From Thermodesulfobacteriota bacterium (GTDB lineage Bacteria > Desulfobacterota_D > UBA1144 > Nemesobacterales > JAJCZQ01): a stretch of DNA of 64,000 bases. The stretch is from the NCBI GenBank assembly GCA_965215275.1, contig OZ244044.1:1-64000 (forward strand), written 5' to 3'. Made by a program: the position numbers and the translations under genes. The notes below the pieces were generated by a model. That model did no database searches. It saw only the letters and a program-made list of their open reading frames with translations, and was not told the origin of the DNA. Positions 4,185-37,933 of the stretch are shown piece by piece (positions within the stretch are counted from its first letter, which is position 1; the number at the start of each line of letters is the position of its first letter).

Positions 4185-4349
4185 CGATAACTTTGCCAAA
4201 CGACCTGAATATGCCTCTTTTTTGTGCAAGATGACCTGAAATACTTGAATTAAACACTTTATTTTACAGGAATTATGACACCTAACGATATTAAGACCAA
4301 GATTTACAGTTTGTCAAAGAACTTATGTATTGCGAGTAATTATAGAGAT
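4185..4349 (-). promoter_or_regulatory. CRISPR leader (AT-rich, between cas2 stop and first repeat)
   Basis: Non-coding AT-rich segment next to the first repeat in transcription orientation; GACCTGAA occurs twice (4202, 4233). Confidence 0.75.
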
Positions 4350-9725: not shown

Positions 9726-9726
9726 T

Positions 9727-15752: not shown

Positions 15753-17420
15753 ATGAGCGCAGCCGTTATTGCCATAGCCGTTCTTGTTTTGTATTTCCTA
15801 GGGTACAGGTTCTATTCATCGTTTCTTTCCAGGAGGATCTTTAATCTGTCTGATGATGAACTGACGCCGGCAAACAGCTTCAATGATGGTATGGATTTCG
15901 TACCATCTGAAAAACACGTTCTCTTCGGTCATCATTTTGCTTCCATAGCAGGTGCCGCTCCCATTATAGGTCCTGCAATTGCAGTGTTCTGGGGCTGGCT
16001 GCCGGCCATACTGTGGGTTGTCTTCGGGACCATTTTCATGGGTGCGGTACATGATTTTGTGTCACTTGTGGTTTCAGCAAGGAACAAAGGAAGATCTATA
16101 AGCGATCTTGCGGGAGTTATCGTTAATCCCAGGGTAAGGACGCTTTTTATGCTTATTGTTTATTTCCTGATATTTTTTGTGATGGCGGTATTTGCTTATG
16201 CGATCGCGGCATTGTTCGTGAAATTCCCTGCAAGCGTGGTTCCAGTTAATTTTGAGATCATTGTTGCAGTGCTGATAGGTTTTCTGCTTTATAAAAAAGG
16301 CGTGCCGCTCCTGTGGCCCTCAATAATAGCTCTGCTGCTCCTTTATTTCATGATATGGGTGGGAACGAGGTTTCCCGTGCAGGTGCCTGAGGTCTTTGGT
16401 TCACAGGTAGCAACGTGGATAATCTTTCTTTTTATCTATTCTTTTATAGCTTCGGTTCTTCCCGTCTGGATACTGCTTCAGCCCAGAGATTACATAAACA
16501 GTCATCAGTTGTTTGTTGGCCTGGGGATCGTGTTCGTCGGGCTTTTTATTGCCAATCCCCAGATGCAGGCCCCCGCCATCAATGTTGCCGCGGGTTTGGA
16601 CGGAGTTCCTTTGCTCCCTTTTCTCTTTGTAACGATAGCGTGTGGTGCTATAAGCGGGTTCCATGGCCTTGTTTCAAGTGGAACAACCTCAAAGCAGCTT
16701 AATAAAATGACCGATGCGAGGTTCATAGGCTACGGTGGAATGATAGGTGAGGGTACCCTTGCGATGCTTGCCACCCTGGCGGTGGCGGCGGGTATAGAGC
16801 ACAGCGTGTGGCTGACCCATTATGCAAGCTGGCATCTTGCCGCAAGCAGCGGGATCGGAAATTTCATTATCGGTGCTTCTTCGTTCCTGGATTCCCTTAT
16901 GATCCCCAGTGCCATAGGGACCACACTGATAAGCGTTATGGTTATAAGTTTTGCCGCGACTTCCCTTGATACCGCTACGCGAATTCAGAGATTTATAATA
17001 GGTGAACTCGGGTCGGTGTATGAGATCGACTTGCTTAGGAACAGGTACGTGGCATCGTTCCTGGCGGTCGTTCCCGCCGTTATGCTGGCATTTCTTGCAG
17101 AGGTTCCCGGGAAAGGTCCTGGTTCGGGAGGATTTCTGCTCTGGCCGTTGTTTGGAGCCACTAACCAGTTGGTGGCATCACTTACGCTTCTGATCGCCTC
17201 GATATACATGTGGAAAACGGGAAAGCCGTTTATTTATACTTTAATACCGATGATCTTTCTGATGCTTATTACAGTAGGGTCCATGATCTTGAATTTTAAG
17301 ACTTTTGCAGATAATTTTCTGCTGTTGGTGCTTTCGACCGTTGTTCTTGCTCTTGCCATCTGGATAGTGCTTGAGGCACTTTTATTCTACAAAAGGGAAA
17401 GGAGCAAAAGAGGGGATTAA
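15753..17420 (+). CDS. cstA: Carbon starvation protein A family transporter
   Basis: GHHFASIAGAAPIIGP, QPRDYIN, ACGAISGFH, LWPLFGATNQL; many TM segments. Confidence 0.95.
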   Translation: MSAAVIAIAVLVLYFLGYRFYSSFLSRRIFNLSDDELTPANSFNDGMDFVPSEKHVLFGHHFASIAGAAPIIGPAIAVFWGWLPAILWVVFGTIFMGAVHDFVSLVVSARNKGRSISDLAGVIVNPRVRTLFMLIVYFLIFFVMAVFAYAIAALFVKFPASVVPVNFEIIVAVLIGFLLYKKGVPLLWPSIIALLLLYFMIWVGTRFPVQVPEVFGSQVATWIIFLFIYSFIASVLPVWILLQPRDYINSHQLFVGLGIVFVGLFIANPQMQAPAINVAAGLDGVPLLPFLFVTIACGAISGFHGLVSSGTTSKQLNKMTDARFIGYGGMIGEGTLAMLATLAVAAGIEHSVWLTHYASWHLAASSGIGNFIIGASSFLDSLMIPSAIGTTLISVMVISFAATSLDTATRIQRFIIGELGSVYEIDLLRNRYVASFLAVVPAVMLAFLAEVPGKGPGSGGFLLWPLFGATNQLVASLTLLIASIYMWKTGKPFIYTLIPMIFLMLITVGSMILNFKTFADNFLLLVLSTVVLALAIWIVLEALLFYKRERSKRGD

Positions 17421-17469
17421 ATATGACGCATCTTTTACGCAGTTTGCTATTGAATATATCATAATATAA

Positions 17470-17889
17470 GGGAATTATATAGGAAAGTTGACAAAATCCC
17501 ATAACTCCCTTTAATTATTAACTTCTTTTATAAAAAAATTGCCTTTAGAATCTACTACTGATTTAAACCTTTTATTCAGTTCTTCTTTAGTTGGTTTTTT
17601 TAGGTCGTTTATGCGGGACCGGTCCCATTTTTAAGAACATCTATTGCTTGTTGTTTTTCTTTTTTTGCTTTTAATTTTTTCATTATAAAACGAATAACTA
17701 TTAAATATGATCAAGACTTCTCCATACTATATTATCATTACTTAATTCTTCAAAGGTAATAGTTTTTCTTACCATACTTGCTAAAAAGAGCATCCGACCG
17801 GTCTTGTGTGTCTGTTTTAACAATCATCATGAAAACCTATCTATATACTTCTCAAATTGCTATTTTGTCAACTTTCCTATATAGTTCCC
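17470..17889. mobile_element. MITE copy 1 (about 420 bp, 28-bp terminal inverted repeats, IS1595-like ends)
   Basis: Left end GGGAATTATATAGGAAAGTTGACAAAAT, right end ATTTTGTCAACTTTCCTATATAGTTCCC; no ORF of 60 aa or more inside; second copy at 21513. Confidence 0.85.
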
Positions 17890-17916
17890 CTTTATTTGAA
17901 CGTCTGCAAAGATACA

Positions 17917-18024
17917 GTTGAAGTCCTAAGGTATGAATGATGAAAAACATATTCTTGACAACAGAGCCCGCATCAGTTAGAGTCTACGTTGAAGTCCTAA
18001 GGTATGAATGATGAAAAACATATT
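17917..18024 (+). repeat. 37-bp direct duplication of the lolD-like start region enclosing a sigma70-like promoter
   Basis: GTTGAAGTCCTAAGGTATGAATGATGAAAAACATATT at 17917 and 17988; TTGACA(17955)-N17-TAGAGT(17978) lies between them. Confidence 0.75.
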
Positions 18025-18691
18025 TGAGGTCGACAGTATTTACAAGACATTTTCAAACAAGAACAATAAGGTAGAAGTTTTAAAGGGAGTAACCCTTGAT
18101 ATACGCAACGGCGAGACGTTCGGTATACAGGGAGCAGGAGGGTCCGGCAAAAGCACCTTGCTGTATATACTGGGAACTTTAGAGAAACCAACTGAGGGCA
18201 GGGTCCTGTTCGACGGGGTCGACGTCTTTAAGCATGATGACAAGGACCTGTCACGTATCAGGAACGAGAAGATAGGGTTCGTATTTCCGTTCCCCTATAT
18301 TCTTCCGTACCTAAATGCCCTGGAAAACGTTATGGTGCACTGTTTGGCGAACGGAATGGAAAATAAAACAGCAAAGGAAACGGCCTTGGCCGCGTTGGAA
18401 AGGGTCGGTTTAGCAAACAAATCAAGCCAGAAGCCAGGTGAACTGTCAGGTGGAGAGCAGCAAAGGGTTGTAATTGCAAGGTCTGTCGTTTCAGGTCCGA
18501 AGGCAGTGCTTGCAGACGAGCCGGCGAGTAACCTGGACCTGAAAACAGGGATGGGCATAACCGATCTCTTTTTAGGATTGAACGAGGAAAAAGGCATTAC
18601 GTTCGTGATAATTACCCATAACTCCGAGATAGCTGACAGACTGAGCAGAAGGGCAATACTGTCGGATGGGAAAGTAGTCGATGTTAACTAA
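18008..18691 (+). CDS. LolD-like ABC transporter ATP-binding protein, orphan copy 1
   Basis: Walker A GAGGSGKST, RNEKIGFVF, LSGGEQQR, LADEP; no permease nearby. Confidence 0.85.
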   Translation: MMKNIFEVDSIYKTFSNKNNKVEVLKGVTLDIRNGETFGIQGAGGSGKSTLLYILGTLEKPTEGRVLFDGVDVFKHDDKDLSRIRNEKIGFVFPFPYILPYLNALENVMVHCLANGMENKTAKETALAALERVGLANKSSQKPGELSGGEQQRVVIARSVVSGPKAVLADEPASNLDLKTGMGITDLFLGLNEEKGITFVIITHNSEIADRLSRRAILSDGKVVDVN

Positions 18692-18699
18692 AATTTATA

Positions 18700-18978
18700 G
18701 TGTTATTAAGTTCTTTCTCGCTTTTGTCACCAAAGCATATAATTCCCTTAGGATCAGGAGAACGACTGAGAGAATTAGAACAATATATTGCTAAAGCAAA
18801 AGAACAATACAAGGAAGCGACCGAGGATTTTTACAAAGCAATGGAGAAAAATCCACGATTAACAGAAGCATACCATGACAGAGGGCGTACCAACTATAAA
18901 CTTGGTCAATACAGAGAAGCAACCCATGACTTTTACCGTTATATGAGGAAGCGACTGCAGAATTTGATAAAGCAGTAG
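18700..18978 (+). pseudogene. Truncated TPR gene (C-terminal fragment)
   Basis: 3' half nearly identical to the end of TPR gene 19307-20176; 5' part contains an IS-end-like ATATAATTCCC near 18740. Confidence 0.7.
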
Positions 18979-20800
18979 AGACCGACCCGCAAGATATAAA
19001 CTACTGTTACAGAGGGGATAGCAAATTCGGACAAGGGAAATAACTGATAGAGATGGAACAAGATAAAGCCGCTGCAGGTTTAGAGCGTGCCGGCAGATTG
19101 CAGAAAAAAGAGATTTCGAAGAAGTTTGCTTGGTGTATACAGAAAATACCTTATGAACTCCTTAGCAGAGGTAACTGGCTGATCGGAGTATTAAATCCCG
19201 ATCTTTTAGTTGTGGTAAAAGAGTTCAATTTTTTCAGACGATATAAACCTTCTGCAATCTTTACTGTATAATAGTCAGTAAAGGATACAGTTTTCAGATA
19301 ATAAACATGGACAGATCAAATACCTTGCCAGAACCAGAGGATGCAAAAGGATACTTTGAACGCGGAAAAGACTTTTTGAACAAAGGAGAGATCCTAAAAG
19401 CCATTGATGATCTGGATGAGGCGGTCCACCTTGATCCCCGATTTGCAAGAGCTTACTATCACAGAGGGCTTGCCAAAAATGAACTTAGGCAATATAAGAA
19501 AGCGGTCGAGGACTTTGATAAAGCAATAGGGAGCAATACCCCCCCCCTTCGAGATACAGAAATCTACTACCGCAGAGGGCTTGCCAAAAATAAACTTGGT
19601 CAATACAAGGAAGCACTTAAAGATTTTGACAAAGCAATAAAGGTCACACGATTTGCAAGAGTTTACTATCAAAGAGGGCGCGCCAACTATAAACTTGGTC
19701 AATACAAGGAAGCACTTAAAGATCTTGACAAAGCAATAGAGAAATATCCACGATTAACAGAAGCATACCATGACAGAGGGCATGCCAACTATAAACTTGG
19801 TCAATACAAGGAAGCGATCAAAGACTTCGGCAAGGCCATAGAGATTAATCCGAAATTCGCAAGAGACTACTATCATATAGGGCTTGCCAAATATGAACTT
19901 GGTCAATACAAGGAAGCACTTAAAGATTTTGACAAAGCAATAAAGGTCACACGATTTGCAAGAGTTTACCATCAAAGAGGGCGCGCCAACTATAAACTTG
20001 GTCAATACAAGGAAGCGATCAAGGATTTTGATAAAGCAATGGAGAAAAATCCACGATTAACAAAAGTTTACAATAACAGAGGACTTGCCAACTATAAACT
20101 TGGTCAATACAGAGAAGCAACCCATGACTTTTACCGTTATATGAGGAAGCGATTGCAGAATTTGATAAAGCAGTAGAGACCGACCCGCAAGATATAAACT
20201 ACTGTTACAGAGGGGATAGCAAATTCGGACAAGGGAAATAACTGATAGAGATGGAACAAGATAAAGCCGCTGCAGGTTTAGAGCGTGCCGGCAGATTGCA
20301 GAAAAAAGAGATTTCGAAGAAGTTTGCTTGGTGTATACAGAAAATACCTTATGAACTCCTTAGCAGAGGTAACTGGCTGATCGGAGTATTAAATCCCGAT
20401 CTTTTAGTTATGGTAAAAGAGTTCAATTTTTTCAGACGATATAAACCTTCTGCAATCTTTACTGTATAATAGTCAGTAAAGGATACAGTTTTCAGATAAT
20501 AAACATGGACAGAGCAAATACCTTATCAGAACCAAAGGATGCAAAAGGATACTTTGAACGCGGAAACGATTTTTTGAACAAAGGTGAGACCGTAAAAGCC
20601 ATTGATGATCTGGATGAGGCGGTCCATCTTGATCCCCGATTTGCAAGAGCTTACTATCACAGAGGGCTTGCCAAAAGTGAACTTGGGAAACACAGGGAAG
20701 CGATCAGGGACTTTGACAAGGCAATAGGGAGCAAATCCCCCCCCCCTCAAGATACAGAAATCTACTACCGCAGAGGGCTTGCCAAAAACGAACTTGGTCA
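18890..20800 (+). repeat. Tandem duplication, period about 1198 bp (TPR 3' end, spacer with 72-aa ORF, TPR 5' end); boundaries approximate
   Basis: Near-identical 72-aa ORFs at 19053 and 20251 with near-identical flanks. Confidence 0.9.
19307..20176 (+). CDS. Tetratricopeptide repeat protein
   Basis: Repeated YYxRGxAxxxLGQYKEAxKDFDKAI units. Confidence 0.92.
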   Translation: MDRSNTLPEPEDAKGYFERGKDFLNKGEILKAIDDLDEAVHLDPRFARAYYHRGLAKNELRQYKKAVEDFDKAIGSNTPPLRDTEIYYRRGLAKNKLGQYKEALKDFDKAIKVTRFARVYYQRGRANYKLGQYKEALKDLDKAIEKYPRLTEAYHDRGHANYKLGQYKEAIKDFGKAIEINPKFARDYYHIGLAKYELGQYKEALKDFDKAIKVTRFARVYHQRGRANYKLGQYKEAIKDFDKAMEKNPRLTKVYNNRGLANYKLGQYREATHDFYRYMRKRLQNLIKQ

Positions 20801-21557
20801 ATACAGGGAAGCGGCCGAGGATTTTGACAAAGCAATAGGGATTAGGCCGCAAGATGCAGCACTCTACTACCGCAGAGGAATCTTCAAAAACAGGTTTGGT
20901 CAACACAAGGAAGCAATTAAGGATTTTGACAAAGTAATAAAAGTTTATCCGCAACTAATAAGATGTTACTATGACAGAGGGCTTGCCAAAAACAGATTTG
21001 GTCAACACAAGGAATCAATTAAAGATTTTGGCAAGGCCATAGAGATAAATCCGAAATTCGCAAGAGACTACCGTTATAGAGGGTGTGCCAAATATGAACT
21101 TGGTCAATACAAGGAAGCACTTAAAGACCTTGGCAAGGCAATAGAGAAAAATCCACGATTAAGCGGAGCATACCATTACAGAGGGTGTGCCAAATATGAA
21201 CTTGGTCAATACAAGGAAGCAATCAAAGACTTTGACAAGGCAATAGAGAAAAATCTATCACAATTAGCACAAGCATACCATTACAGAGGGTGTGCCAAAT
21301 ATAAACTTGGTCAATACAAGGAAGCACTTAAAGACCTTGACAAGGCAATAGAGAAAAATCCACGATTAGCAAAAGCATACCATTACAGAGGGCTTGCCAA
21401 ACATAAACTTGGTCAACACAGAGAAGCGACCCATGACTTTTACCGTTATATGAGGAAGCGATTTCGCCGCAAGATACAAGATCTTGCTATTACAGGGATA
21501 ATAGCAAATTTGGGGAACTATATAGGAAAGTTGACAAAATCCCATAACTCACTTTAA
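20505..21557 (+). CDS. Tetratricopeptide repeat protein; last codons derive from MITE copy 2
   Basis: TPR units; C-terminus diverges from paralog 30557-31786 exactly where the MITE begins. Confidence 0.92.
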   Translation: MDRANTLSEPKDAKGYFERGNDFLNKGETVKAIDDLDEAVHLDPRFARAYYHRGLAKSELGKHREAIRDFDKAIGSKSPPPQDTEIYYRRGLAKNELGQYREAAEDFDKAIGIRPQDAALYYRRGIFKNRFGQHKEAIKDFDKVIKVYPQLIRCYYDRGLAKNRFGQHKESIKDFGKAIEINPKFARDYRYRGCAKYELGQYKEALKDLGKAIEKNPRLSGAYHYRGCAKYELGQYKEAIKDFDKAIEKNLSQLAQAYHYRGCAKYKLGQYKEALKDLDKAIEKNPRLAKAYHYRGLAKHKLGQHREATHDFYRYMRKRFRRKIQDLAITGIIANLGNYIGKLTKSHNSL

Positions 21558-21955
21558 TAATTGACTTCTTTTATAAAAGGATTTACTTTAGAGTCTGCTA
21601 CTGATTTAAACCTTTTATTCAGTTCTTCTTTAGTGGTTTTTTAGGTCGTTTATACGGGATTGATCCCATTTTAAAAACATCCTTGATGCTTTATCTATTG
21701 CTTGTTGTTTTTCTTTTTTTTTGTTTTTAATTTTTTCATTATAAACAAATAACTATTAAATATGATCAAGACTCCTACATACTATATTATCATTACTTAA
21801 TTCTTCAAAGGTAATAATTTTTCTTAAAATACTGCTAAAAAGAGCATCCAATCGGTCTTGTGTGTCTATTTTAAAGTTACAATCATTTAACCTTCTGAAA
21901 ACTCATCTATATACTTCTCAAATTGCTATTTTGCCAACTTTTCTATATAATTCCC
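21513..21955. mobile_element. MITE copy 2
   Basis: GGGAACTATATAGGAAAGTTGACAAAAT ... ATTTTGCCAACTTTTCTATATAATTCCC; interior collinear with copy 1. Confidence 0.85.
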
Positions 21956-22009
21956 TAATATAATATTTATCCTCATCATAATAGAAATGAATTATCAGGT
22001 GTATGGAAG

Positions 22010-23890
22010 ATGTCTTCTAACTGGAATTTTAGAAAAGTTTCTCCAGCAGAGATGAATTATGATCCCGTTCAGGGAGAGTTCTTTACAGGTAAGGATATTG
22101 TTGATCGCCTAGTCAGGGAAACTCTGCAGAATTCTCTTGATGCAGGAAATGGAAATGGTCATCCCGTGAGAGTTCGCTTTGCCGTACACTCTGATGAACC
22201 GGTTTTTTCTTCCGACAAACAGGATTTCTACTTTAGTGGACTTATTCGGCATCTGCATGAATCAGGGTGTGATTTTATACTCTCTAAACAATCTTTGTCT
22301 TATCTTGTTATTGAAGATTTTGAAACCACAGGACTTACTGGAGACCCTGAACAAACAAATGATGAAAAGGGTAACGATTTTTACTATTTTTTCAGAAATG
22401 TAGGACGTTCTGGGAAAGGGGAAGATAAAGGTGGCAGTTGGGGACTGGGGAAATGGGTTTTTCCGGATGCTTCGAAGCTAAATGCATTTTTTGCTCTGAC
22501 AAAAAGGGATGATGGCGATGTTTTATTTATGGGGCAAGCAGTTCTTAAACAGCATACGATTGATAATGAGAAATATGACCCTTACGGTTTTTTCTCAAAA
22601 CTTGAAGATAATGAAAGTGGGTTACAAATACCCTTTAACGCCCAAGAAGATCAGAACATAATTAAAACCTTTCAGCATGATTTTAATCTGCAACGCGATG
22701 ACGAGACAGGTCTTTCAATAGTAGTTCCTTTCCTATCTGAAGATGAGGGTTTTCAATCTTTTTTTCCTGAAGATATAGTTCGTTCCGTAATTAAATACTA
22801 TTTTTATCCAATTGTGTCAGGCGATTTGGTGGTTGAGGTTTGTGGTTCTGGAAAGGAGTGGTCTTCTGAAAAAAAAGTTTTGGATCACGATAGTATTGAA
22901 GATATTGTCACACAGCTGCGTTGGCCTGATCATCGAGAGATCGGTCAGGAGGACCTTAAGCGCCTGATTGAAATGGCTATGGACAGATCAACAATTGAAG
23001 AAAGTAAATGGCATAATCTGGAATACAAAGGACTTAACAAAGGTATGAAAGAGTCTATTGGTTCTAAAAGAGAAGAACTTGCTGAACTTTATAACTCTGG
23101 TGAAAGGCTGTATTTAAAAATTCCCATAGAAGTTAAAGAAAAGAAAAGTAAAAAAAACTTTTCTTCTTATTTCACTGCAATTATTCAAAAGGATAAAGAT
23201 GTTGAGCAAGGTAAAGACTACTATGTGAGGGGTAATCTTGCCATTCAGGATATTGATACCGTCAGACAGTATCCAGTGCGGGTTTTAGTCCATATAGAGG
23301 AAAAAGAAGCTTTGGCTCATCTTCTAAGAGATACCGAAGAACCATCACATTCCGATTGGCGACCTAATGCTCCACGAGCAAAAGAAAAATACGTCAACGT
23401 TCGACAGACGGTAAATATGGTGAAGAATGCGGTCAAGGATATCCTTTCTGTACTTTCCGAAGACAACGATGAATCAGTACAGGAAGATGCTTTTATTGAT
23501 TTCTTTTACGTGAAAAAACGGGAAACAGGTTCTAATAATGGTGAAATATCAACTTCTCCAACTCCTGATGTAAATCCGGATGGAAAAATGAATTTATTTA
23601 AAATTGAACGCAAAAGCAACGGTTTTGCAGTTTCTATGTCGGATGGATATGACCTTCCTTGTTCTATTCACATTGACCTGGCTTATAACATCACAAAAAA
23701 CCCGCTTTCCCAGTACAGTCCACTTGATTTTGAGCTGGATAAATCGCCAATCAGTATTAAATGTGAAGGATGCAGTTGTAAAGGCGAGGACAACCATCTT
23801 GTAGTGGAAAACATAGAAGAGAATTTTAAAGTGACCGTTAAGGGTTTTGATATACATCGTGACCTCTATATAAAAGCCGAAGCTGATTAA
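22010..23890 (+). CDS. GHKL (MORC/Hsp90/MutL-like) ATPase domain protein with uncharacterised C-terminus
   Basis: N-box LVRETLQNSLDA, G1-like IEDFETTGLTG, G2-like GKGEDKGGSWGLGK. Confidence 0.75.
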   Translation: MSSNWNFRKVSPAEMNYDPVQGEFFTGKDIVDRLVRETLQNSLDAGNGNGHPVRVRFAVHSDEPVFSSDKQDFYFSGLIRHLHESGCDFILSKQSLSYLVIEDFETTGLTGDPEQTNDEKGNDFYYFFRNVGRSGKGEDKGGSWGLGKWVFPDASKLNAFFALTKRDDGDVLFMGQAVLKQHTIDNEKYDPYGFFSKLEDNESGLQIPFNAQEDQNIIKTFQHDFNLQRDDETGLSIVVPFLSEDEGFQSFFPEDIVRSVIKYYFYPIVSGDLVVEVCGSGKEWSSEKKVLDHDSIEDIVTQLRWPDHREIGQEDLKRLIEMAMDRSTIEESKWHNLEYKGLNKGMKESIGSKREELAELYNSGERLYLKIPIEVKEKKSKKNFSSYFTAIIQKDKDVEQGKDYYVRGNLAIQDIDTVRQYPVRVLVHIEEKEALAHLLRDTEEPSHSDWRPNAPRAKEKYVNVRQTVNMVKNAVKDILSVLSEDNDESVQEDAFIDFFYVKKRETGSNNGEISTSPTPDVNPDGKMNLFKIERKSNGFAVSMSDGYDLPCSIHIDLAYNITKNPLSQYSPLDFELDKSPISIKCEGCSCKGEDNHLVVENIEENFKVTVKGFDIHRDLYIKAEAD

Positions 23891-24685
23891 ATGGAGAGGA
23901 TGAAGATGATCAGGAAACTCAATTACACGGCCAGAAGACGCATTTCAAAATCGGATGCGATAATTACTTTTGATAAAAGCACAAGTCCACTTTCTTTTGA
24001 AGCCCAACTTAATTTTGAAAAATACAATTTTGAACCGGAATCCCGTGTATTCGTGGAAGCATATCGTGGTAACTCCTTTATGCGTTTTGATTATGGTACC
24101 GTGGAAAATCCTGAGATACCCTCAGACCGCAGATTATCCGAAATTGAAGGTGCCGCTCATACTCGTTTTCGTGTAAAGGTCGTTGACGATCAAAGTGGAA
24201 AATTATTTGCAATAACGTCTGTGTTGAATCCGAAACAGGGTTCTCAGGATCAACATGAGCCCTTGCTTCCTTTGTATATAACGGATACAGGCAATCAGGT
24301 CTGGAATCTAAAATTTGATAATGAAGGTGTCAGGTTGCAAGCGAATCGGCACATTAAAAGCGTTAAAGAGATGACAAAAACTCCGGCATTTCGAGCCTTG
24401 GTTTTTCCTGCTGTAATCCGTGAAGTCCTTTTTTATATTATCTTTGTGGAGAAGTGTGAATACTATGAAGACAATGACATGGATGAAGAGTCTCCATGGG
24501 ATAAATGGCTGAGGTTTATCGCAGGTTTCTATCCAGAGGAATATCCAGGTCCATCTGGAGATGGATACTCTGATGAACAGGAATTTTCAGGGTGGATTGA
24601 CGGGGCAGTTGAAGCTTTCAGTTCCAAGTATAAATTGAAAGATGTTTTTCAAAGCAGCGTTCGCCGGGGGACCTGGTTTGGCTGA
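23891..24685 (+). CDS. Hypothetical protein, operonic with the GHKL ATPase
   Basis: 264-aa ORF starting immediately after the upstream stop; no recognised motif. Confidence 0.8.
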   Translation: MERMKMIRKLNYTARRRISKSDAIITFDKSTSPLSFEAQLNFEKYNFEPESRVFVEAYRGNSFMRFDYGTVENPEIPSDRRLSEIEGAAHTRFRVKVVDDQSGKLFAITSVLNPKQGSQDQHEPLLPLYITDTGNQVWNLKFDNEGVRLQANRHIKSVKEMTKTPAFRALVFPAVIREVLFYIIFVEKCEYYEDNDMDEESPWDKWLRFIAGFYPEEYPGPSGDGYSDEQEFSGWIDGAVEAFSSKYKLKDVFQSSVRRGTWFG

Positions 24686-25424
24686 TATAGTTCGTCAACT
24701 TACAAAAGAAGGTATGAATGCCTTCCGTGACTATATTGAAGCAAGACGGCGTGGTGAAGACCGTGGTCCGGTACCCTCCTATCTGCTTTACAGCAGTCCC
24801 TACTCAGAGTCTCTGCAGCAGCAAATAGAGATAGAAAAAGAGCGGTTTTATACAAAATATGAAGAGGCGGTCTACTTCAGCGACGTTTTTAAAGGTTTTG
24901 ATCACGAAGAAATATCATACAATGGTGGTTTGTGGTCGTGGCTTAGTCTTTACTATCTTGATGAGTTGTTACAATCACAATCCGGGCGAAGAGGAACATT
25001 GAACGCTCCAAACAACTATATCCTTGAAGTGGAAGAAGGGGAACTTAACTGGAGAGACTATGTAAAACACCTTCTTGCAACTCCTTTTTATATTTACAGA
25101 TACCACGGAGAAAAATCCAGGATGTTACTGACGGGACCTGTTGGGTCCAGAAAGCAATTGACATTTCAAATTGCAGGACGACAACAATTTGCCAGATCAG
25201 ATGAATTCATCAAATTGGTCAACCGACTTTATGAGGATGACAGTGGCAATACTAAATCCGGGGTGACTTCTGGTATATCAAGTAAATTTAAAGCAAATCC
25301 CGGTGATCTAAGTAGATTGTTCTTATTATTTAAGCAACTAGAATTAACATACGATATTTTCAATATGTCTTGTGAAAAGATGATAGAACTGCTTCCTTCT
25401 GAATTTGATGAGTGGCTTGCTTAA
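24678..25424 (+). CDS. Hypothetical protein, third gene of the operon (likely TTG start at 24678)
   Basis: Long ORF overlapping the previous stop; GGGGGA upstream of the TTG. Confidence 0.75.
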   Translation: MADIVRQLTKEGMNAFRDYIEARRRGEDRGPVPSYLLYSSPYSESLQQQIEIEKERFYTKYEEAVYFSDVFKGFDHEEISYNGGLWSWLSLYYLDELLQSQSGRRGTLNAPNNYILEVEEGELNWRDYVKHLLATPFYIYRYHGEKSRMLLTGPVGSRKQLTFQIAGRQQFARSDEFIKLVNRLYEDDSGNTKSGVTSGISSKFKANPGDLSRLFLLFKQLELTYDIFNMSCEKMIELLPSEFDEWLA

Positions 25425-25444
25425 AATAAACGCCCAACCACAAC

Positions 25445-26050
25445 TTACATCTCTTTTCTATCTTTCAAGGCTTTTGCTATGGTCAGTTCATCTATGTACT
25501 CAAGGTCTCCTCCCATGGGTATACCGTGGGCGAGCCTGGTTACCTTGATGCCAAGGTTCTTTACGATCTTTGCAACGTATAATGAGGTTGCTTCTCCTTC
25601 CACGCTTGGATTGGTTGCTATAAGGACCTCTTTCGTTTGATTGTTGTCAAGGCGTTCTGTAAGTTCACGGACAGTAAGATCTTCCGGACCAACTCCATCA
25701 AGTGGGGATATAACGCCGTTCAGCACGTGATAGACCCCATCGAACCCTCTGCTTTTTTCTATTGCTATCAGATCAAGAGGGTCTTCGACCACGCAGATCA
25801 GCGACCTGTCTCGTGATCTGTCGGTACATATGCTGCAAGGGTCAACGGAAGATAAATGAAAGCAGGTACTGCAGGCAAAAACCGAGGATTTTGTCTCCAG
25901 TATGGACTTGGCAAGCCTTTGGGTGTAGTCGTTCCTGGACCTCAGGATATAAAAGGCAAGCCTTGTGGCATTTGTTTCTCCGATGCCGGGCAGCTTGGTA
26001 AGTTCGTCAATAAGTATGGATATGGGTTTTGGAAGTCCTTTGTGGCTCAT
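25445..26050 (-). CDS. recR: Recombination mediator RecR
   Basis: LPGIG, C4 zinc finger, Toprim ATNPSVEGEAT, GIPMGGDLEYID. Confidence 0.97.
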   Translation of the reverse strand: MSHKGLPKPISILIDELTKLPGIGETNATRLAFYILRSRNDYTQRLAKSILETKSSVFACSTCFHLSSVDPCSICTDRSRDRSLICVVEDPLDLIAIEKSRGFDGVYHVLNGVISPLDGVGPEDLTVRELTERLDNNQTKEVLIATNPSVEGEATSLYVAKIVKNLGIKVTRLAHGIPMGGDLEYIDELTIAKALKDRKEM

Positions 26051-26053
26051 ATA

Positions 26054-26377
26054 TCAGATCAGACCGGGAGGAAGTCCGAGTCCTCCTGTAAGCTTTACAA
26101 CTTCGTCTTTCATCATTTTTTGTCCCTGGCTCAATGCTTCGTTTACCGCAGCGATAATAAGGTCCTGAAGCATATCGATATCTTTGTCTTCTATAATGTC
26201 CGGTTCTATCTTTATTGAAGTTATCTCACCTTTGGCCTTTGCCGTAACGGTTACCATGCCCCCGCCTGACGTGACCTCCAGTTCTTTGTTTCCAACTTCC
26301 GATTGCATTTTGTCCATCTGCTCTTTCATTTTTGCCGCCTGCTTCATTAAGTTCTTCATATTTCCGCCAAATTTCAT
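26054..26377 (-). CDS. ybaB: YbaB/EbfC nucleoid-associated protein
   Basis: SGGGMVTV, DMLQDLIIAAVNEA; dnaX-ybaB-recR synteny. Confidence 0.95.
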   Translation of the reverse strand: MKFGGNMKNLMKQAAKMKEQMDKMQSEVGNKELEVTSGGGMVTVTAKAKGEITSIKIEPDIIEDKDIDMLQDLIIAAVNEALSQGQKMMKDEVVKLTGGLGLPPGLI

Positions 26378-26395
26378 GTCTTTGCTCCTTTATTG

Positions 26396-28060
26396 TTATT
26401 TGATTATCTTTCCCTCGAAAATCTCTATTGCCATTTGAACGGCAGTTTTATGCTGCGTTTTGTCTTCACTTTTTGCAGCAGGGGGTTTGTCCGTATCCCT
26501 TTTTTTAGCTTCCGGTCCATCTCCCTTTTTAAGTTCCACCCTGATCCTCATTTCAGGTTTATTATAATACTGACAGGCAAGTGACTTCAGTTTTTCCAGG
26601 TCGTTTTTTGCAGACTCGAAGCTCATTGAGCTTTCGCTGTAGACGATCTTAACGTTCCCTTCCTCTTCGTCTATCGAATCTGCTTTTTCCAGATGCATCC
26701 CCAGGATGTGACTTTTTTCTTTAACAAAAGATACAAAGGTATCAGGGCCTGGGTCATCTTTTGCTGTCTTGCTGCTCTGTTGCCTGGTGTATGGGTTTGC
26801 TGGTTCATCTGCGGATCTGGTATTACGTGCTGTGCTGTAACGTTTTGTGGAGTAGTCTGGCGTGCTGGCTGCTGTGTGGGTTGTAACTTCAGGTGTGTTC
26901 TTCAACTTGGCAGAAAGACCTTCTATCTGTTCTATGATCTTATTAATGGGTATTGTGGTATCAGTTATAGTGGCAAGCCTTATTATCATTGCTTCCAGAT
27001 AAAGTTCAGGAAAGGACGATCTGTGAACTTTCTCGGCATTTTCGATAGCAAGACTGAATATAAGTTCAAGGTACTCCGGGCTTTTGCCACTGATCAGCTT
27101 TTTTATATGCTCGGCATCGTCATCGGTCAGGTCCACGTCCAGTTTATCTCCATATATCCTGATGAAAAGGGCATCCCTCAGGATGCTTGTAAGACTGCCT
27201 GCGACCTTTCTGGGCGGTATTCCCCAGCTAGTTATATGTTTAAGCGTCTCGATCGATCTTTTAGGGTCTTTATCTATTATGCCTTGTAATAGTTCGTGCA
27301 GGCAGGTCTTGTCCAGGATCTCCAGAGCCTCCACCGTGTCGTTATAGCTTATTTTATTGCCAAACGCTGCGATCAGCTGGTCCATGAGGCTCAGTGCATC
27401 CCTTATACTGCCGTCGGATTCTTTGGATATTGAGGTGGTGGTTTCCTTGTCTACCGTTATTCCCTCGGTCTCTGCGATCCGTTCGAGCTGTACTCTGATC
27501 TCTTTGATCGAGAGTTTTTTAAAATCGTAATTCTGGCATCTTGAGCGGATGGTTGCCGGGATTCCGTGAGCTTCAGTGGTTGCGAGTATAAAAAGCACGT
27601 GACCTGGGGGTTCTTCAAGGGTCTTTAAAAGTGCGTTAAACGCCGCTTTTGACAACATGTGTGCCTCGTCGATTATATAAACCTTGTTCTTTGCCGAACT
27701 CGGGAGGTACTTTACGTTTTCCGTTACTTCTCTTATTTTATCCACTCCCGTGTGAGATGCTGCATCTATTTCCAGCACGTCAACTGATCTGCTTTCTGAT
27801 ATTTCAGTACAGGAAGAGCAGGCATTATCCAGATCCTTACATACCAGGTTCTCGTTGTCCGGCCTAGTGCAGTTAAGTGCTTTAGCGACTATTCTGGCAG
27901 TGGTGGTCTTACCAACGCCCCTTGGCCCTGAAAATATAAGTGCATGGGCGAGTTTTTCCGAGGTGATCGCGTTTTTCAGTGCAAGCGTTATGTACTGCTG
28001 ACCTATTACTTCGTCAAACGTTTTAGGTCTCCATTTTCTTGCCAGAACTATATATGACAT
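26396..28060 (-). CDS. dnaX: DNA polymerase III gamma/tau; true start probably ATG 28060
   Basis: MSYIVLARKWRP, GPRGVGKTT, EIDAAS, DEAHML, SRC. Confidence 0.96.
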   Translation of the reverse strand: MSYIVLARKWRPKTFDEVIGQQYITLALKNAITSEKLAHALIFSGPRGVGKTTTARIVAKALNCTRPDNENLVCKDLDNACSSCTEISESRSVDVLEIDAASHTGVDKIREVTENVKYLPSSAKNKVYIIDEAHMLSKAAFNALLKTLEEPPGHVLFILATTEAHGIPATIRSRCQNYDFKKLSIKEIRVQLERIAETEGITVDKETTTSISKESDGSIRDALSLMDQLIAAFGNKISYNDTVEALEILDKTCLHELLQGIIDKDPKRSIETLKHITSWGIPPRKVAGSLTSILRDALFIRIYGDKLDVDLTDDDAEHIKKLISGKSPEYLELIFSLAIENAEKVHRSSFPELYLEAMIIRLATITDTTIPINKIIEQIEGLSAKLKNTPEVTTHTAASTPDYSTKRYSTARNTRSADEPANPYTRQQSSKTAKDDPGPDTFVSFVKEKSHILGMHLEKADSIDEEEGNVKIVYSESSMSFESAKNDLEKLKSLACQYYNKPEMRIRVELKKGDGPEAKKRDTDKPPAAKSEDKTQHKTAVQMAIEIFEGKIIK

Positions 28061-29624: not shown

Positions 29625-30537
29625 GGGAATTATATATTTAATTACTCAAGAAATCAAAATTACCTGACGGAAGAGTTATGTTATGGCAGTCAAGGGATTT
29701 AGAGGTAACGCAGAATACGGCCTGGTTTTCAGCGCACAGGATAAGAAAAGCGTTTGAAGGGCGGTCGGATAATGCTTTGCTCTCTCCAACAGAGATGGAT
29801 GAGACCCGTGCGGGCGAATCGTTAAAGAACAAACGTGCAAGCAAGAAGACAGAAGGGACACAGGGCAGAAGGACCAGGTCAGCAGTAGCAGGAATCAAGT
29901 CAGGGGCAGACAGGAAGATCAAGACAAGGGTAACTGAAACCATTAAGAAGGAAGAACTGCAGAATATGATAAAAGAGACGGTTACGGACGGGTCAACGGT
30001 TTACAAGGATGATAATCCAGGATATAATGGATTGAGTAAAAAGGGATATGCTCACGAGAGAGTAAATCACAGCGTGGGAGAGTATATAAAAGGTCGAGCA
30101 CGTACCAACCGCCGGATAGAAAGTTTCCGGTCTGCGTTCAAGAGGGGATATACCGGAACTTACCACACTATATGAGCAGGAAACACCTGCAACGCTACGT
30201 TGACGAGTACGCGGGCAGACACAATAACGGACCATTAACTACTGTGGATCAGATCGCAAAGGTCATAAAAGGATCGTCAGGCAAGCGTCTCAGATACGAG
30301 GAATTGATCAGATGAACGGATATATTAAGTGAGAGAGAGGATAAATGGGAAGAAAACCAAAATTAATACGGCCTGTTAAAGTTTCCATGGAAGAGGTAGT
30401 GGATGCTCTGTATTTGCCAAACAAAAGGCTGTTGTAAAGGCAGGAAAACCTAAAAATAAACTAAAAGACAATCAAAAATTAAAAGCTAATGATAACAAGT
30501 AGTTAGATCTTTTTGGGTAATTAAGTATATAGTCCCC
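29625..30537 (+). mobile_element. Internally deleted IS1595-family element, copy A (transposase pseudogene)
   Basis: Imperfect TIRs GGGAATTATATATTTAATTACTC and reverse-complement GGGGACTATATACTTAATTACCC; EMDET, VNHSVGEY, IESF, GTYH motifs; frameshifted tail SRKHLQRYVDEY...GKRLRYEELI. Confidence 0.88.
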
Positions 30538-30556: not shown

Positions 30557-31786
30557 TCAGTCTTTCTCCAATGCCAAATTTGCTATCACCCCTGTAATAG
30601 CAGGATTTTGCATCTTGCGAAACCGCTTCCTCATATAACGGTAAAAGTCCCTGATCGCTTCCCTGTATTGACCAAGTTTATATTTGGCAAGTCCCCTGTT
30701 ATTGTAAACATTTGCCGGTCGCGGATTTTTCTCCATTGCTTTGTCAAAATCCCTGATCGCTTCCCTGTATTGACCAAGTTTATATTTGGCAAGTCCCCTG
30801 TTATTGTAAACATTTGCCGGTCGCGGATTTTTCTCCATTGCTTTGTCAAAGTCCCTGATCGCTTCCCTGTATTGACCAAGTTTATATTTGGCAAGTCCCC
30901 TGTTATTGTAAACATTTGCCGGTCGCGGATTTTTCTCCATTGCTTTGTCAAAATCCCTGATCGCTTCCCTGTATTGTCCAAGTATGACTTTGGCAGAACC
31001 TCTGTTATTGTATGCTTTTGCTAATCGCGGATTTTTCTCCATTGCTTTGTCAAAATCCCTGATCGCTTCCCTGTATTGTCCAAGTATGATTTTGGCAGAA
31101 CCTCTGCTATTGTAAGCTAGTGCTAATTTTTGCCGTGGATTTTTCTCTATTGCTTTGTCAAAATCCTTGATCGCTTCCCTGTATTGTCCAAGATTATATT
31201 TGGAAAGTGCTTTGTCATAGTAGTCCGCTACGAATTTCGGATTAATCTCTATGGCCTTGCCAAAATCTTTAATTGCTTCCTTGTGTTGACCAAATCTGTT
31301 TTTGGCAAGCCCTCTGTCATAGTAACATCTTATTAATTGCGGATAGACTTCTATTACTTTGTCAAACTCCTTAATTGCTTCCTTGTGTTGACCAAATCTG
31401 TTTTTGAATATCCCTCTGCGGTAGTCGAGTGCTGCATCTTGCGGCATAACCCCTATGGCCTTGTCAAAGTCCTCGGCCGCTTCCCCGTGTTGCCCAAGTT
31501 CGTTTTTGGCAAGCCCTCTGCGGTAGTAGATTTCTGTATCTTGAGGGGGGGGGGATTTGCTCCCTATGGCTTTGTCAAAGTCCTTGATCGCTTCCCTGTG
31601 TTTCCCAAGTTCACTTTTGGCAAGCCCTCTGTGATAGTAAGCTCTTGCAAATCGGGGATCAAGATGGACCGCCTCATCCAGATCATCAATGGCTTTTACG
31701 ACCTCTCCTTTGTTCAAAAAATCGTTTCCGCGTTCAAGGTATCCTTTTGCATCCTTTGGTTCTGGTAAGGTATTTGATCTGTCCAT
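30557..31786 (-). CDS. Tetratricopeptide repeat protein (start MDRSNT at 31786)
   Basis: TPR units including near-identical 102-bp tandem copies; paralog of 19307 and 20505. Confidence 0.92.
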   Translation of the reverse strand: MDRSNTLPEPKDAKGYLERGNDFLNKGEVVKAIDDLDEAVHLDPRFARAYYHRGLAKSELGKHREAIKDFDKAIGSKSPPPQDTEIYYRRGLAKNELGQHGEAAEDFDKAIGVMPQDAALDYRRGIFKNRFGQHKEAIKEFDKVIEVYPQLIRCYYDRGLAKNRFGQHKEAIKDFGKAIEINPKFVADYYDKALSKYNLGQYREAIKDFDKAIEKNPRQKLALAYNSRGSAKIILGQYREAIRDFDKAMEKNPRLAKAYNNRGSAKVILGQYREAIRDFDKAMEKNPRPANVYNNRGLAKYKLGQYREAIRDFDKAMEKNPRPANVYNNRGLAKYKLGQYREAIRDFDKAMEKNPRPANVYNNRGLAKYKLGQYREAIRDFYRYMRKRFRKMQNPAITGVIANLALEKD

Positions 31787-31799
31787 GTTTATCATCCAA

Positions 31800-32865
31800 C
31801 CTGCCTTTACAACAGCCTTTTGTTTGGCAAATACAGAGCATCCACTACCTCTTCCATGGAAACTTTAACAGGCCGTATTAATTTTGGTTTTCTTCCCATT
31901 TATCCTCTCTCTCACTTAATATATCCGTTCATCTGATCAATTCCTCGTATCTGAGACGCTTGCCTGACGATCCTTTTATGACCTTTGCGATCTGATCCAC
32001 AGTAGTTAATGGTCCGTTATTGTGTCTGCCCGCGTACTCGTCAACGTAGCGTTGCAGGTGTTTCCTGCTCATATAGTGTGGTAAGTTCCGGTATATCCCC
32101 TCTTGAACGCAGACCGGAAACTTTCTATCCGGCGGTTGGTACGTGCTCGACCTTTTATATACTCTCCCACGCTGTGATTTACTCTCTCGTGAGCATATCC
32201 CTTTTTACTCAATCCATTATATCCTGGATTATCATCCTTGTAAACCGTTGACCCGTCCGTAACCGTCTCTTTTATCATATTCTGCAGTTCTTCCTTCTTA
32301 ATGGTTTCAGTTACCCTTGTCTTGATCTTCCTGTCTGCCCCTGACTTGATTCCTGCTACTGCTGACCTGGTCCTTCTGCCCTGTGTCCCTTCTGTCTTCT
32401 TGCTTGCACGTTTGTTCTTTAACGATTCGCCCGCACGGGTCTCATCCATCTCTGTTGGAGAGAGCAAAGCATTATCCGACCGCCCTTCAAACGCTTTTCT
32501 TATCCTGTGCGCTGAAAACCAGGCCGTATTCTGCGTTACCTCTAAATCCCTTGATAGTTTCAAACCTGAAACTCCTTTCAGATCGGTCGTTAACAAGTAA
32601 ACGGACGCAAACCAAATCTGGAACGGTAATTTGCCTTGCTCCAATATCGTCCCCTGTCCTACGCTAAATCTCTTTCTGCAATCCTTACATCTGTACGGCG
32701 TTGCACGTTCAGCCCTTACCGTCCTCATGCTTCCACAGTGAGGACAGAACCTGTCCTTCTCATCTTTACCCCATAATCTTTCTGAAAGGTAATTCCTTGC
32801 TGATCCCTCATCCGGAAACTTCTTAAAAAAACTTGTAAAAACTTACCTTGTTTTTTTCCTCTCAT
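31800..32865 (-). mobile_element. IS1595-family transposase pseudogene, copy B, inverted relative to copy A
   Basis: CPHC...CKDC zinc ribbon plus DDE region; 31800-32554 is the reverse complement of 29690-30444; frameshifts near both ends. Confidence 0.88.
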
Positions 32866-33330
32866 CTATGGTTAATATACTTCCATAATATCACTCCTCT
32901 ATCAAGTTGTCTTTATGTTAAACAAACAAGAACACATAGCCGGAGTGAAAACTGGTCGCAGAAAGGCTTATCTGTGCAGTTCAACTCACAAGAAGTCAGA
33001 TGAGTGTCTAGATATTCATACTTGTTGTATTCAATAGTGCTTTGCAAGAAAGAATAGTTGATCACAGGGAGATGAAAAGGCCGTATAGAGAAGTAACTCC
33101 CGTTAGCTGGAAGTATAAAACAAATTACTATGATCAGCAGAACAGGTTATATCGTTCATTCCCTTATGTTCTCCCCGGCCTTTTCAATCAAGTACAGGTA
33201 TCCGGACATAGTCTTTATGTTCAGTTCTGTTAATTCCCCTTCAACCCTTCTATCTCCCAAGACCTTAAAGACGGAGATTGCAGGTTCCTGCGTCTCATCG
33301 CCGTCTGGAAGAACCTGCTCGGCAGGGACA

Positions 33331-34011
33331 TTAGTTAACGTCGACTATTTTCCCATCCGACAGCGTTATCCTCTTGCTCAATCTGTCAATTGTCCTGAAG
33401 TTCTGGACGATCACAAGTGTAATGCCTTTTTCCTCGTTCAATCCTAAAAGGAGGTCGATTATGCCCATCCCCGTTTTAATGTCCAGGTTACCCGCCGGTT
33501 CATCTGCAAGCACTGCCTTCGGACCTAGAACGACAGACCTTGCAATTGCGACTCTCTGCTGCTCACCACCGGACAGTTCACCTGGCTTATGGCCTAATCT
33601 GTTTGCCAGACCAACCCTTTCCAGCGCGGCGGCGGACGTTTCCTCTGCCGTTCTGTTTTCCATTCCGTTCACCAGACAGTGTACCATAACGTTTTCCAAG
33701 GCATTTAGGTCCGGAAGAAGATAGGGGAACTGAAATATGAACCCTATCTTCTCGTTCCTGATCCGTGACAGGTTCTTGTCATCATGCTTAAAGACGTCAA
33801 TCCCATCAAACAATACCCTGCCCTCCGTTGGCCTCTTTAAAGTTCCCAGGATGCACAACAAGGTGCTTTTGCCAGACCCTGAATACCCCCGTATACCAAC
33901 AGTTTCACCATCGCGTATATTAAAGGTTACTCCCCTTAAAACTTCAACTGTATTGTTTTTATTTGACAAGGTCTTATAAACGCACTCAACCTCAAATATG
34001 TTTTTCATCAT
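33331..34011 (-). CDS. LolD-like ABC ATP-binding protein, orphan copy 2
   Basis: Paralog of 18008-18691; GYSGSGKST, LSGGEQQR, LADEP; H-loop altered (IVQN). Confidence 0.82.
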   Translation of the reverse strand: MMKNIFEVECVYKTLSNKNNTVEVLRGVTFNIRDGETVGIRGYSGSGKSTLLCILGTLKRPTEGRVLFDGIDVFKHDDKNLSRIRNEKIGFIFQFPYLLPDLNALENVMVHCLVNGMENRTAEETSAAALERVGLANRLGHKPGELSGGEQQRVAIARSVVLGPKAVLADEPAGNLDIKTGMGIIDLLLGLNEEKGITLVIVQNFRTIDRLSKRITLSDGKIVDVN

Positions 34012-37700: not shown

Positions 37701-37933
37701 CGTACACGGTAACGGACAGGAATGGAGACATTAAAGAGTTGACCTTCAGGTTCAGTGCAGCGGCTCCGCCACCGACAGGTAGTGATCCAGGCGGAGGTGG
37801 AGGAGGATGTGCTGTATCAGATCAGAGCAGTGTTGCTTATGATATTCTCGGAGTAATGGCATGTCTGATGCTTATACCCGTGTCGGTATTGATCAGAAGG
37901 AAGGGAAGAGCTCGGATAAGGACCTGGCAATGA
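34778..37933 (+). CDS. S8 subtilase-like (kexin-type, P-domain) protein with putative Ig repeats and C-terminal Gly-rich-Cys/TM sorting signal; catalytic residues substituted
   Basis: DPLYGCQWHL, LSWRDIKLIL, YGFGVVDA, P-domain GEDPSGEW; about 5 repeats with LPxATGG/ISGTP/YTYKVTD; GGGGGGC, then TM helix, then basic tail. Confidence 0.85.
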   Translation: MVIAAKGQSSLEGPLSECRGNSADVEDPLYGCQWHLKNTGQFIYSGKEITAGEDINIEGVWNDDVYGSGINIAIVSDGMDLSHEDLSANVRSGLNYDHSGKNNSEENSSESVDLSDGSSFSGTRAAGVIAATGYNGLGVRGTAPGASIYSYRLSGDLSEADAGDAKEITAVSVNDWGPEDKYLLVQASTVWEEGLELGISKGFYGKGVFYVRGAGDGHENNDQANFSEYSNYYGVTAVCSTDGFGKKSIFSEEGVNLWVCAPGSDIVTTDNNNDYVVTSGTVLSASQAGGVAALLREVNGNLSWRDIKLILAGSARQNDVSDLIWETGAFKYGSDVERYKYNPKYGFGVVDAEAAAELAESWKGVGEMRTVTAFSDNEITIPYGEGNGEGEADGVAVSGLIIPDLEETTFTEFVEVELVLSCDCLQDLNINITSPSGTVSELVREVVSGPSDEKEKNCVSYLRRTHRFGSARHLGEDPSGEWILHITDTAYGDEENEENTVTLHSWSVKVYGHFYQGSGSEITPKALTFGGATIPTQNYFVGEAITPVMLPEATGASDITYSFNPALARGLEFDQDTRTISGTPAITHVSGRLYSYVARGGGRVVTIAFTIRISPRRVPIFGNQTVEDQVWGNGRAVTLTLPQATGGNGTLNYSLTPALSSIGLSFNSSTRQITGTTNVSGQLPVTTTYTYKVTDDDGDTDTRTFSITIEANSEPSFGGQTIPNQIYIQGTTAGLPVTLPAATGGNSPLVYSISPALPNVLSFNPDTRVISGTPIQHIPIPVTYTYKVTDNDGDTDELTFSITVRAEPNTMPTFGSETIENKVYINGEAVMETLPEATSGNAPLTYSLNRGNSALFKELIFTASTRELSGTPNLDARILPITKAFTYKVTDNDGDTAEITFSITIEEDSEPDFSVTTIEDQVYMGRSIRLPVATGGNAPLVYSITPPLPPGLRLDRNTGEISGTPASASSERTYTYTVTDRNGDIKELTFRFSAAAPPPTGSDPGGGGGGCAVSDQSSVAYDILGVMACLMLIPVSVLIRRKGRARIRTWQ

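Follow-up and report, generated by a model that had tools for sequence, protein, structure and literature searches.

What is a run of three closely packed genes doing between a miniature inverted-repeat transposable element (MITE) and recR in the genome of a Thermodesulfobacteriota bacterium? The genes, here termed A, B and C, occupy positions 22010 to 25424 of the window, meaning the entire stretch of 64,000 nucleotides that was analysed (contig OZ244044.1 of assembly GCA_965215275.1, positions 1 to 64,000 of the forward strand). They had been described in an earlier note, made from the letters of the window, as a candidate anti-phage operon led by a GHKL/MORC-like ATPase. The cassette is real, conserved and probably defensive, and it is already known in so far as a sister clade has been catalogued as a candidate. 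The reading towards which the balance gently tips is that of an acquired cassette encoding one predicted complex, likely to defend against foreign DNA, in which A would act as the clamp, B as the bridge and C as the DNA-engaging subunit.

The operon lies where it had been placed. Raw same-strand open reading frames (ORFs) run at 22010-23890, 23891-24685 and 24642-25424, and the MITE (21513-21955) is a repeated element with seven genomic copies aligning over at least 350 bp by blastn, both window copies included. The tight coupling that had been claimed is upheld for B and C and amended for A and B. The start of B is most likely the ATG at 23906, which is the database call of 259 aa, corresponds to homologues that begin MIRR and is preceded by a GGAGAGGA ribosome site; this start leaves 15 bp between A and B instead of the 0 bp first proposed. 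The start of C is most likely the TTG at 24678, where homologues begin MADIV and a GGGGGA site lies upstream, giving an 8-bp overlap with B and a product of 248 aa. Across related loci the A and B genes overlap in 48 of 58, by 4 bp in 39 of these. The C gene ends 20 bp from the stop of the convergent recR (25445), and this join is not an assembly artefact, since contigs from three public DNA runs, all of one study, span 21896-26500 unbroken with zero differences. No RNA dataset was listed as carrying the cassette, which has no bearing on its expression.

The stretch from 17421 to 25444 is an insertion, as cstA abuts recR directly in two genomes of the same family (G019 and G020) and one of the same order (G047); in G021 recR was not matched. 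In a second species of the same genus (G018) a C gene adjoins recR, with a DNA identity of 74% compared with 83% for the recR region, so the cassette was probably at recR before the two species split. The G+C content at third codon positions (GC3) is 0.30, 0.36 and 0.35 for the three genes against a genome median of 0.46, which fits a foreign origin and is suggestive only, 18% of long ORFs also lying below 0.36. The right end of the MITE carries a TTGCTA-17-TATAAT site at 21923-21951, sigma-70-like at 10 of 12 positions, which faces gene A from 58 bp before its start. The MITE may in this way supply the promoter of the operon; a promoter scan returned four sites where 3.5 are expected by chance, and the site is a lead only.

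Conservation of the trio, which stays together in many distantly related microbes, was followed in 83 loci: three were fetched by A, and the other 80 were the best of 86 fetched by C. Since the comparison was seeded mostly from C, it reports the partners of C, as read in the 59 loci where the sequence reaches over 1 kb upstream of that gene: in the order A-B-C, A is present in all 59 and B in 58, the single exception having lost the first half of B (L055). Decayed cassettes are also seen, with the start of A joined in frame to the end of C at L098:7832-8359 (G089) and the Ig half of B gone at L055:9590-9995. A profile search with C yields 1951 representatives at 50% identity, whilst within the phylum C is found in only 6 of 120 genomes, that of the window included. 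The three closest full relatives, with A identities of 57-59%, are in Thermodesulfobacteriota metagenome-assembled genomes and have unrelated flanks. A full cassette is carried on a plasmid of Rhizobium leguminosarum TP16 (NZ_CP140867.1); eight plasmid records match A, one of them full-length, and none matches the C relative P0102. Among phage records there is one partial match to A, and 0 of 33 pattern matches in viral contigs were confirmed. The presence in 6 of 120 genomes, the differing flanks, the empty site, the low GC3 and the decayed copies together mark the cassette as patchy, mobile and horizontally acquired, in keeping with the stand-alone module, led by a GHKL ATPase, that had been proposed.

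What, then, do the three proteins look like? The GHKL boxes reported for A are confirmed at R36-D44, E102-G111 and G141-V150, and vary little or not at all across 28 homologues, with E37, N41, D103, T106, G108, G142, G145 and G147 identical in 28 of 28 rows. A thus displays the sequence features of the GHKL superfamily, namely an N box with its catalytic glutamate and Mg-binding asparagine, a DxGxG box and a glycine-rich lid. The MORC part of the earlier label is not borne out. MORCs are defined by a GhXhhpXXRhl motif in the S5 region, and paraMORC2 proteins by ExxxH in the later part of S5, according to the available text of Iyer, Abhiman and Aravind (2008, PMC2292703). The strict GhXhhpXXRhl pattern occurs in 0 of 28 A rows. 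ExxxH, in the form E-x-P-x-H (E443-x-P-x-H447 in the S5 region of A), is present in all 28 and in 4 of 4 PDC-M33A-type proteins of the sister clade, which marks A as paraMORC2-type by motif and not as MORC proper. The protein finishes with a C-terminal domain of about 90 aa that closes with a conserved F613-D-x-x-R-D-L strand. Searches of the PDB by sequence or profile gave nothing significant for A or for the cassette proteins as a whole, and neither Pfam nor NCBIfam holds a significant family for A, B or C.

The AlphaFold2 model of B, with a pLDDT (predicted local distance difference test) of 89, comprises an Ig/FN3-like beta-sandwich at about residues 8-111 and a helical half. The sandwich aligns with Ig/FN3 folds (VIA; Z 8.5, root-mean-square deviation 3.1, 95 residues aligned). 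Foldseek gave no match to B at E 0.001, the top rows being Ig/FN3-like and the helical half barely probed. The predicted sandwich is a common fold that does not reveal function. The first six residues of B are poorly modelled in the lone chain, yet they are conserved (R3 in 87% and N6 in 100%), and in the predicted complex the first strand of B (2-7) pairs with the last strand of A (615-624). This complex was modelled from A (340-626, residues 1-339 omitted) and C, with B as the partner, and scored 0.72 against 0.28 for the best of three controls; the score mark is reached by 116 of 157 solved complexes and by 2 of 215 mismatched pairs. Contact agreement between runs was at least 77% and partner pLDDT at least 80. 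Residues 97-100 of B are predicted to meet C at 167-170 and 223-230, and both interfaces fall among the most conserved residues of each protein. Replacement of A brought the score down to 0.28, so that the B-C link is less well supported than the A-B link. The model as a whole supports the binding of A, B and C as one complex with B as the bridge.

C, the candidate effector, is mostly helical in its AlphaFold2 model (pLDDT 94). It has no Foldseek match at E 0.001 in the PDB or BFVD and no ESM Atlas match at 0.9, and its best VIA match (Z 3.7, root-mean-square deviation 2.7, 61 residues aligned) is to an unrelated helical part; blank fold searches are no proof that the fold is new. The conserved polar residues are H131, R213, Q220, T224, D226 and E242. 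By alignment column there is no conserved PD-(D/E)xK, HNH, HKD or HEPN pattern in C, as scanned with generally known nuclease and HEPN motif patterns; loose counts over whole sequences, such as HKD found once among 45 rows and once among 150, carry little weight. A HEPN RNase reading of an R-x4-H stretch was rejected because the arginine is not conserved, an R-x4-6-H arginine preceding H131 in only 77 of 148 rows. Four of the 150 representatives listed are long forms of C. One (P0137) bears an N-terminal B3-type DNA-binding barrel (TM 0.76), with feature scores to EcoRII-N below 0.9, and in another (P0235) one segment is homologous to an EcoRII-C-family restriction enzyme, in the N-terminal region of the latter (31% over 138 columns, E 3e-12). 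The other two have a low-complexity tail and a zinc ribbon (a Pfam match, P0108).

Does the company kept by the cassette point to defence? With 13 near-duplicate loci set aside, the neighbours examined were 132 ORFs, the nearest of 184 candidates within 5 kb, and the cut-off for defence genes was E 1e-25. Twenty-one loci are well flanked (at least 2 kb on each side), 19 of them distinct, and the controls were 19 random 10-kb windows of the window genome. After curation, a defence gene lies within 5 kb in 12 of the 19 loci and 4 of the 19 controls (Fisher p 0.02), which is in line with the defence association that the earlier note had asked to be looked for. The genes concerned include type I and type III restriction, Mrr, DRT1, Cas3, Dcm and several PDC models, and in L001, L012, L015 and L079 restriction genes of type I or III lie immediately beside the cassette. 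Curation dropped a sigma-54 regulator match from the loci and, from the controls, two P-loop proteins and two Cas12f-like proteins that we take to be TnpB-like. The 2-Mb window genome is itself rich in defence systems: the control windows L134, L137, L139 and L140 (G000:C1 at 378, 818, 926 and 958 kb) contain matches to Azaca ZacB, a type IIG restriction gene, PD-T4-4/PDC-M47 and a Mza operon.

From these observations we infer both anti-phage defence and a mechanism for it. By analogy with the GHKL superfamily, A, as a paraMORC2-type protein, would dimerise on ATP and trap or loop DNA; it has been proposed that GHKL-S5 proteins grip DNA as an ATP-gated dimer (PMC2292703, available text). Since A would dimerise, the working unit would be A2B2C2, an A dimer carrying two B-C units, in which B is predicted to link A to C. 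C would read DNA sequence or modification state, as its fusions and neighbours suggest, and the complex would then block or damage the invader. A linked cytosine methylase would be optional. The effector step is the weakest of the proposal, no catalytic site having been recognised; it would fall either to an unrecognised active site in C (candidates H131, R213, Q220 and E242) or to a recruited nuclease encoded elsewhere. In a bolder form of this scheme, which is rather unlikely, A-B-C would be a stand-alone, methylase-independent restriction machine made of a paraMORC2 clamp, an Ig-fold adaptor and a C effector of unsolved fold, whose chemistry, unlike that of known nucleases, would damage or immobilise foreign DNA, and it would form one large superfamily with PDC-M33 in which self-marking partners are freely swapped.

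Several points weigh against a DNA-directed defence complex. Neither B nor C has a conserved nuclease motif. The well-conserved polar residues R168, Q169, T224 and D226 of C sit in the interface predicted with B, so that few remain for catalysis. The window C has F163 where 78% of relatives have glutamate and K130 where 93% have arginine, and it is acidic (isoelectric point 5.2 against a family median of 6.9), which disfavours DNA binding; fusions to DNA-recognition domains amount to 2 of the 150 representatives listed. The calibration of the complex score is only rough here, the job having three chains, custom alignments and A without residues 1-339. The neighbourhood enrichment is modest and depends on curation, the uncurated count being 13/19 against 8/19 (p 0.19); the control windows all come from one defence-rich genome, and 7 of the 19 loci have no curated defence neighbour. 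The window copy itself stands outside any defence island, among TPR genes, an ABC ATPase and MITEs, with a Cas12 locus 8.5 kb away. Finally, the sister system PDC-M33 has been described as an untested candidate.

The absence of a nuclease motif also suits the best-surviving alternative, an infection sensor with a toxic output. Here an Hsp90-type A would capture a phage protein, possibly via Ig-like domains, and free or activate C to bring about arrest. GHKL proteins are able to bind not only DNA but also proteins, as stated in the available text of the Tiamat preprint (10.64898/2026.09.30.754977), B has a predicted Ig-like sandwich, and 19 of the 21 well-flanked loci are without a linked C5 methylase or Vsr gene. 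Such a sensor is nevertheless distinctly unlikely, given that two relatives have DNA-recognition domains fused to C, that methylase-linked copies sit on several branches of the C tree, that A and C are predicted to take up the Ig domain of B, and that C matches no known toxin fold among the rows listed.

The link to methylases is central to a second alternative, in which the cassette would not itself be a defence effector and would serve a methylase system as a MutL-like helper, coupling a Vsr or restriction nuclease, linked or not, to methylated sites. MutL works with Vsr (PMC2292703, available text). Of the 83 loci, 9 have a C5 methylase or Vsr gene (8 with Dcm, 7 with Vsr), as do 2 of the 21 that are well flanked, short contigs concealing some such partners; the dcm/vsr association that the earlier note had asked to be looked for is confined to a minority. 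As the earlier note had stated, no methylase or nuclease gene is adjacent to the window copy. The window genome does hold four C5 methylase genes and two Vsr matches, all unlinked to the cassette, and the restriction genes directly adjacent in four loci, as well as the methylases of the PDC-M33-type cassettes described below, could be read in the same direction. Against this, in most loci, among them those of a 41-row clade and of the clade of the window, the trio is intact with no methylase present, the methylase label changing five times on the 65-row C tree, and the adjacent restriction systems vary in type between loci; an accessory role is accordingly more doubtful again. A separate locus of the window genome, L121:937-2661 (G000:C1 at about 803.2-804.9 kb), has a 574-aa ORF with C5 methylase and Vsr domains followed by an EcoRII-C-family gene.

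That the cassette is a selfish or addiction module, or has some other non-defence role and clusters in variable regions as insertion hotspots, is improbable: several loci lie beside housekeeping genes, the raw defence enrichment is not significant and the same site is kept in two species of the genus, but in some 1950 clusters at 50% identity the pattern of an intact ATPase partner is maintained where loci are readable, the conserved unit has no transposase or integrase, and the curated count does show enrichment of defence neighbours.

The coordinates of the cassette and its surroundings are collected in Table 1.

Table 1. Positions of the A-B-C cassette and adjoining features in the window
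Feature	Positions	Strand	Remarks
gene A	22010..23890	+	626 aa; GHKL ATPase domain, S5 region, linker, C-terminal domain
gene B	23906..24685	+	259 aa; alternative ATG 23891; Ig/FN3-like sandwich and helical C-terminal domain (predicted)
gene C	24678..25424	+	248 aa from TTG; ORF open from 24642; mostly helical (predicted)
MITE	21513..21955	.	terminal inverted repeats of about 28 bp; overlaps 3' end of upstream TPR gene; blastn against own genome
insertion, about 8 kb	17421..25444	.	MITE, ABC ATPase gene, TPR genes, second MITE, then A-B-C
cstA	15753-17420		flanks the 8-kb insertion
recR	25445-26050		flanks the 8-kb insertion

Elsewhere in the window, two tandem Cas12a-class genes lie on the minus strand at 6192-13524, with cas genes continuing to 4627 and an array of at least 34 repeats at about 2000-4200. 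The pair consists of a typical Cas12a of 1265 aa and a divergent protein of 1177 aa, followed by cas4- and cas1-like genes. The 1177-aa protein scores best on other Cas12a models (PDLC01230/01232, M26), has no Pfam match and may be what we presume to be a Cas12a2-like nuclease. At 17470-21955 and 30557-34011 lies a unit, present several times in the genome, that consists of a MITE, an ABC ATPase gene and TPR genes. IS1595-family transposase fragments are found at 29678-30175 and probably at 32069-32728, and 34778-37933 encodes a 1051-aa protein with a subtilase domain, a P domain and several Ig repeats.

In 2008, bacterial MORC-like ATPases were proposed as drivers of restriction-type defence and as the source of eukaryotic MORC silencers (PMC2292703, available text). 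The cassette would be a minimal, three-gene, methylase-free version of such a system; its assembly model, the interface residues named from it and the plasmid copy in a cultured soil bacterium, Rhizobium leguminosarum TP16, make the proposal directly testable. The family is large, with its 1951 C representatives, and two of the three genes are missed by the models of PADLOC 2.0; solving the structure of C would probably reveal an additional fold.

How does the cassette compare with systems already described? It is unlike Azaca, which was considered and rejected: no Zac model matched, B and C have no Walker A motif, and the HKD pattern is as rare as noted above. The parts of Azaca are a DUF6361 protein, a PLD nuclease and a superfamily 2 (SF2) helicase with Walker A (10.1101/2025.07.10.664194, available text). 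Tiamat and the GHKL-bearing Shedu proteins share the use of a GHKL ATPase in anti-phage defence, but are single proteins with a nuclease domain of their own, and no PADLOC model of them matched A, B or C. The prokaryotic MORC systems, in which an SF2 or Z1 helicase is combined with nucleases (Mza in PADLOC), have the same GHKL and S5 engine and similar defence-type neighbourhoods, whereas the cassette has no MORC motif, no match to a Mza model and no helicase partner.

The paraMORC2 family is closer, sharing the GHKL motifs, the ExxxH of S5, a sporadic spread and copies that in some cases accompany Dcm and Vsr; these ATPases were assigned to restriction-type systems by context. B- and C-like partners are not described in the available text of that account (PMC2292703), and the cassette has neither an SF2 helicase nor a restriction-fold nuclease as a conserved member. 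The term paraMORC2 appeared in no other paper in the literature searched, and paraMORC defence is treated as a proposal in the available text of the Tiamat preprint (10.64898/2026.09.30.754977).

The closest system of all is PDC-M33, and the view that the cassette matches no named system can no longer be held. PDC-M33 (A, PDLC04582; C, PDLC04584-04587, equivalent to DUF6339/PF19866) likewise consists of an ATPase, a middle protein and a protein of about 250 aa, with similar lengths. A matches the PADLOC model PDC-M33A at E 8.2e-30 (102 bits) over its residues 1-278 and model positions 1-268 of 627, and its profile aligns with PDC-M33A-type proteins at a probability of 99.4% over 419 columns. 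The profile of B aligns with PDC-M33B weakly (probability 18.5%, E 0.0013), and that of C with DUF6339 by hhalign at a probability of 57% (E 1e-4, 157 columns) when 125 DUF6339 rows are used, control profiles of A and B against DUF6339 scoring near zero. An earlier comparison of C with only four DUF6339 rows had given 1.3% (E 0.041), cross searches between C and DUF6339 with single hidden Markov models were not significant (best E 0.011 and 0.016), and one C relative (P0067) has a precomputed DUF6339 label. No PADLOC model matched B at E 0.1 or two B relatives at 0.001, the PDC-M33C and PF19866 models matched 0 of 46 C relatives at E 0.01, and neither PDC-M33C nor DUF6339 has a match in the window genome. 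The literature searched gave no account of the A-B-C trio, PDC-M33 or DUF6339, and the comparative papers examined had no GHKL, MORC or DUF6339 term. PDC-M33 goes unnamed in the available main text of Payne et al. (10.1101/2024.01.29.577857), where 145 PDC systems are called untested, and the supplementary tables may describe it further.

The cassette therefore has the A model and the co-oriented A-B-C order of PDC-M33 and lacks its B and C models; as two of the three models fail, it is filed, on sequence, as a distant sister clade that is absent from the catalogue. The two also differ in that the A C-terminal domain and the B Ig domain of the cassette fail to align with their counterparts, and in that the cassette clade is mostly without a linked methylase, whereas PDC-M33-type cassettes in four other genomes of the phylum, whose C is DUF6339, have a C5 methylase in 4 of 4 cases and Vsr in 3 of 4 (ORF sequence). 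Within the phylum the two occupy different host genomes, although they stand back to back in one locus (L053:303-10738), where the cassette is joined by a PDC-M33-like one (667, 377 and 233 aa, the last being DUF6339) and where the far end holds a C5 methylase gene and one resembling a nicking endonuclease. With A homologous, including its E-x-P-x-H motif, and B and C weakly homologous and colinear, the cassette probably shares an ancestor with PDC-M33 and works in a similar manner.

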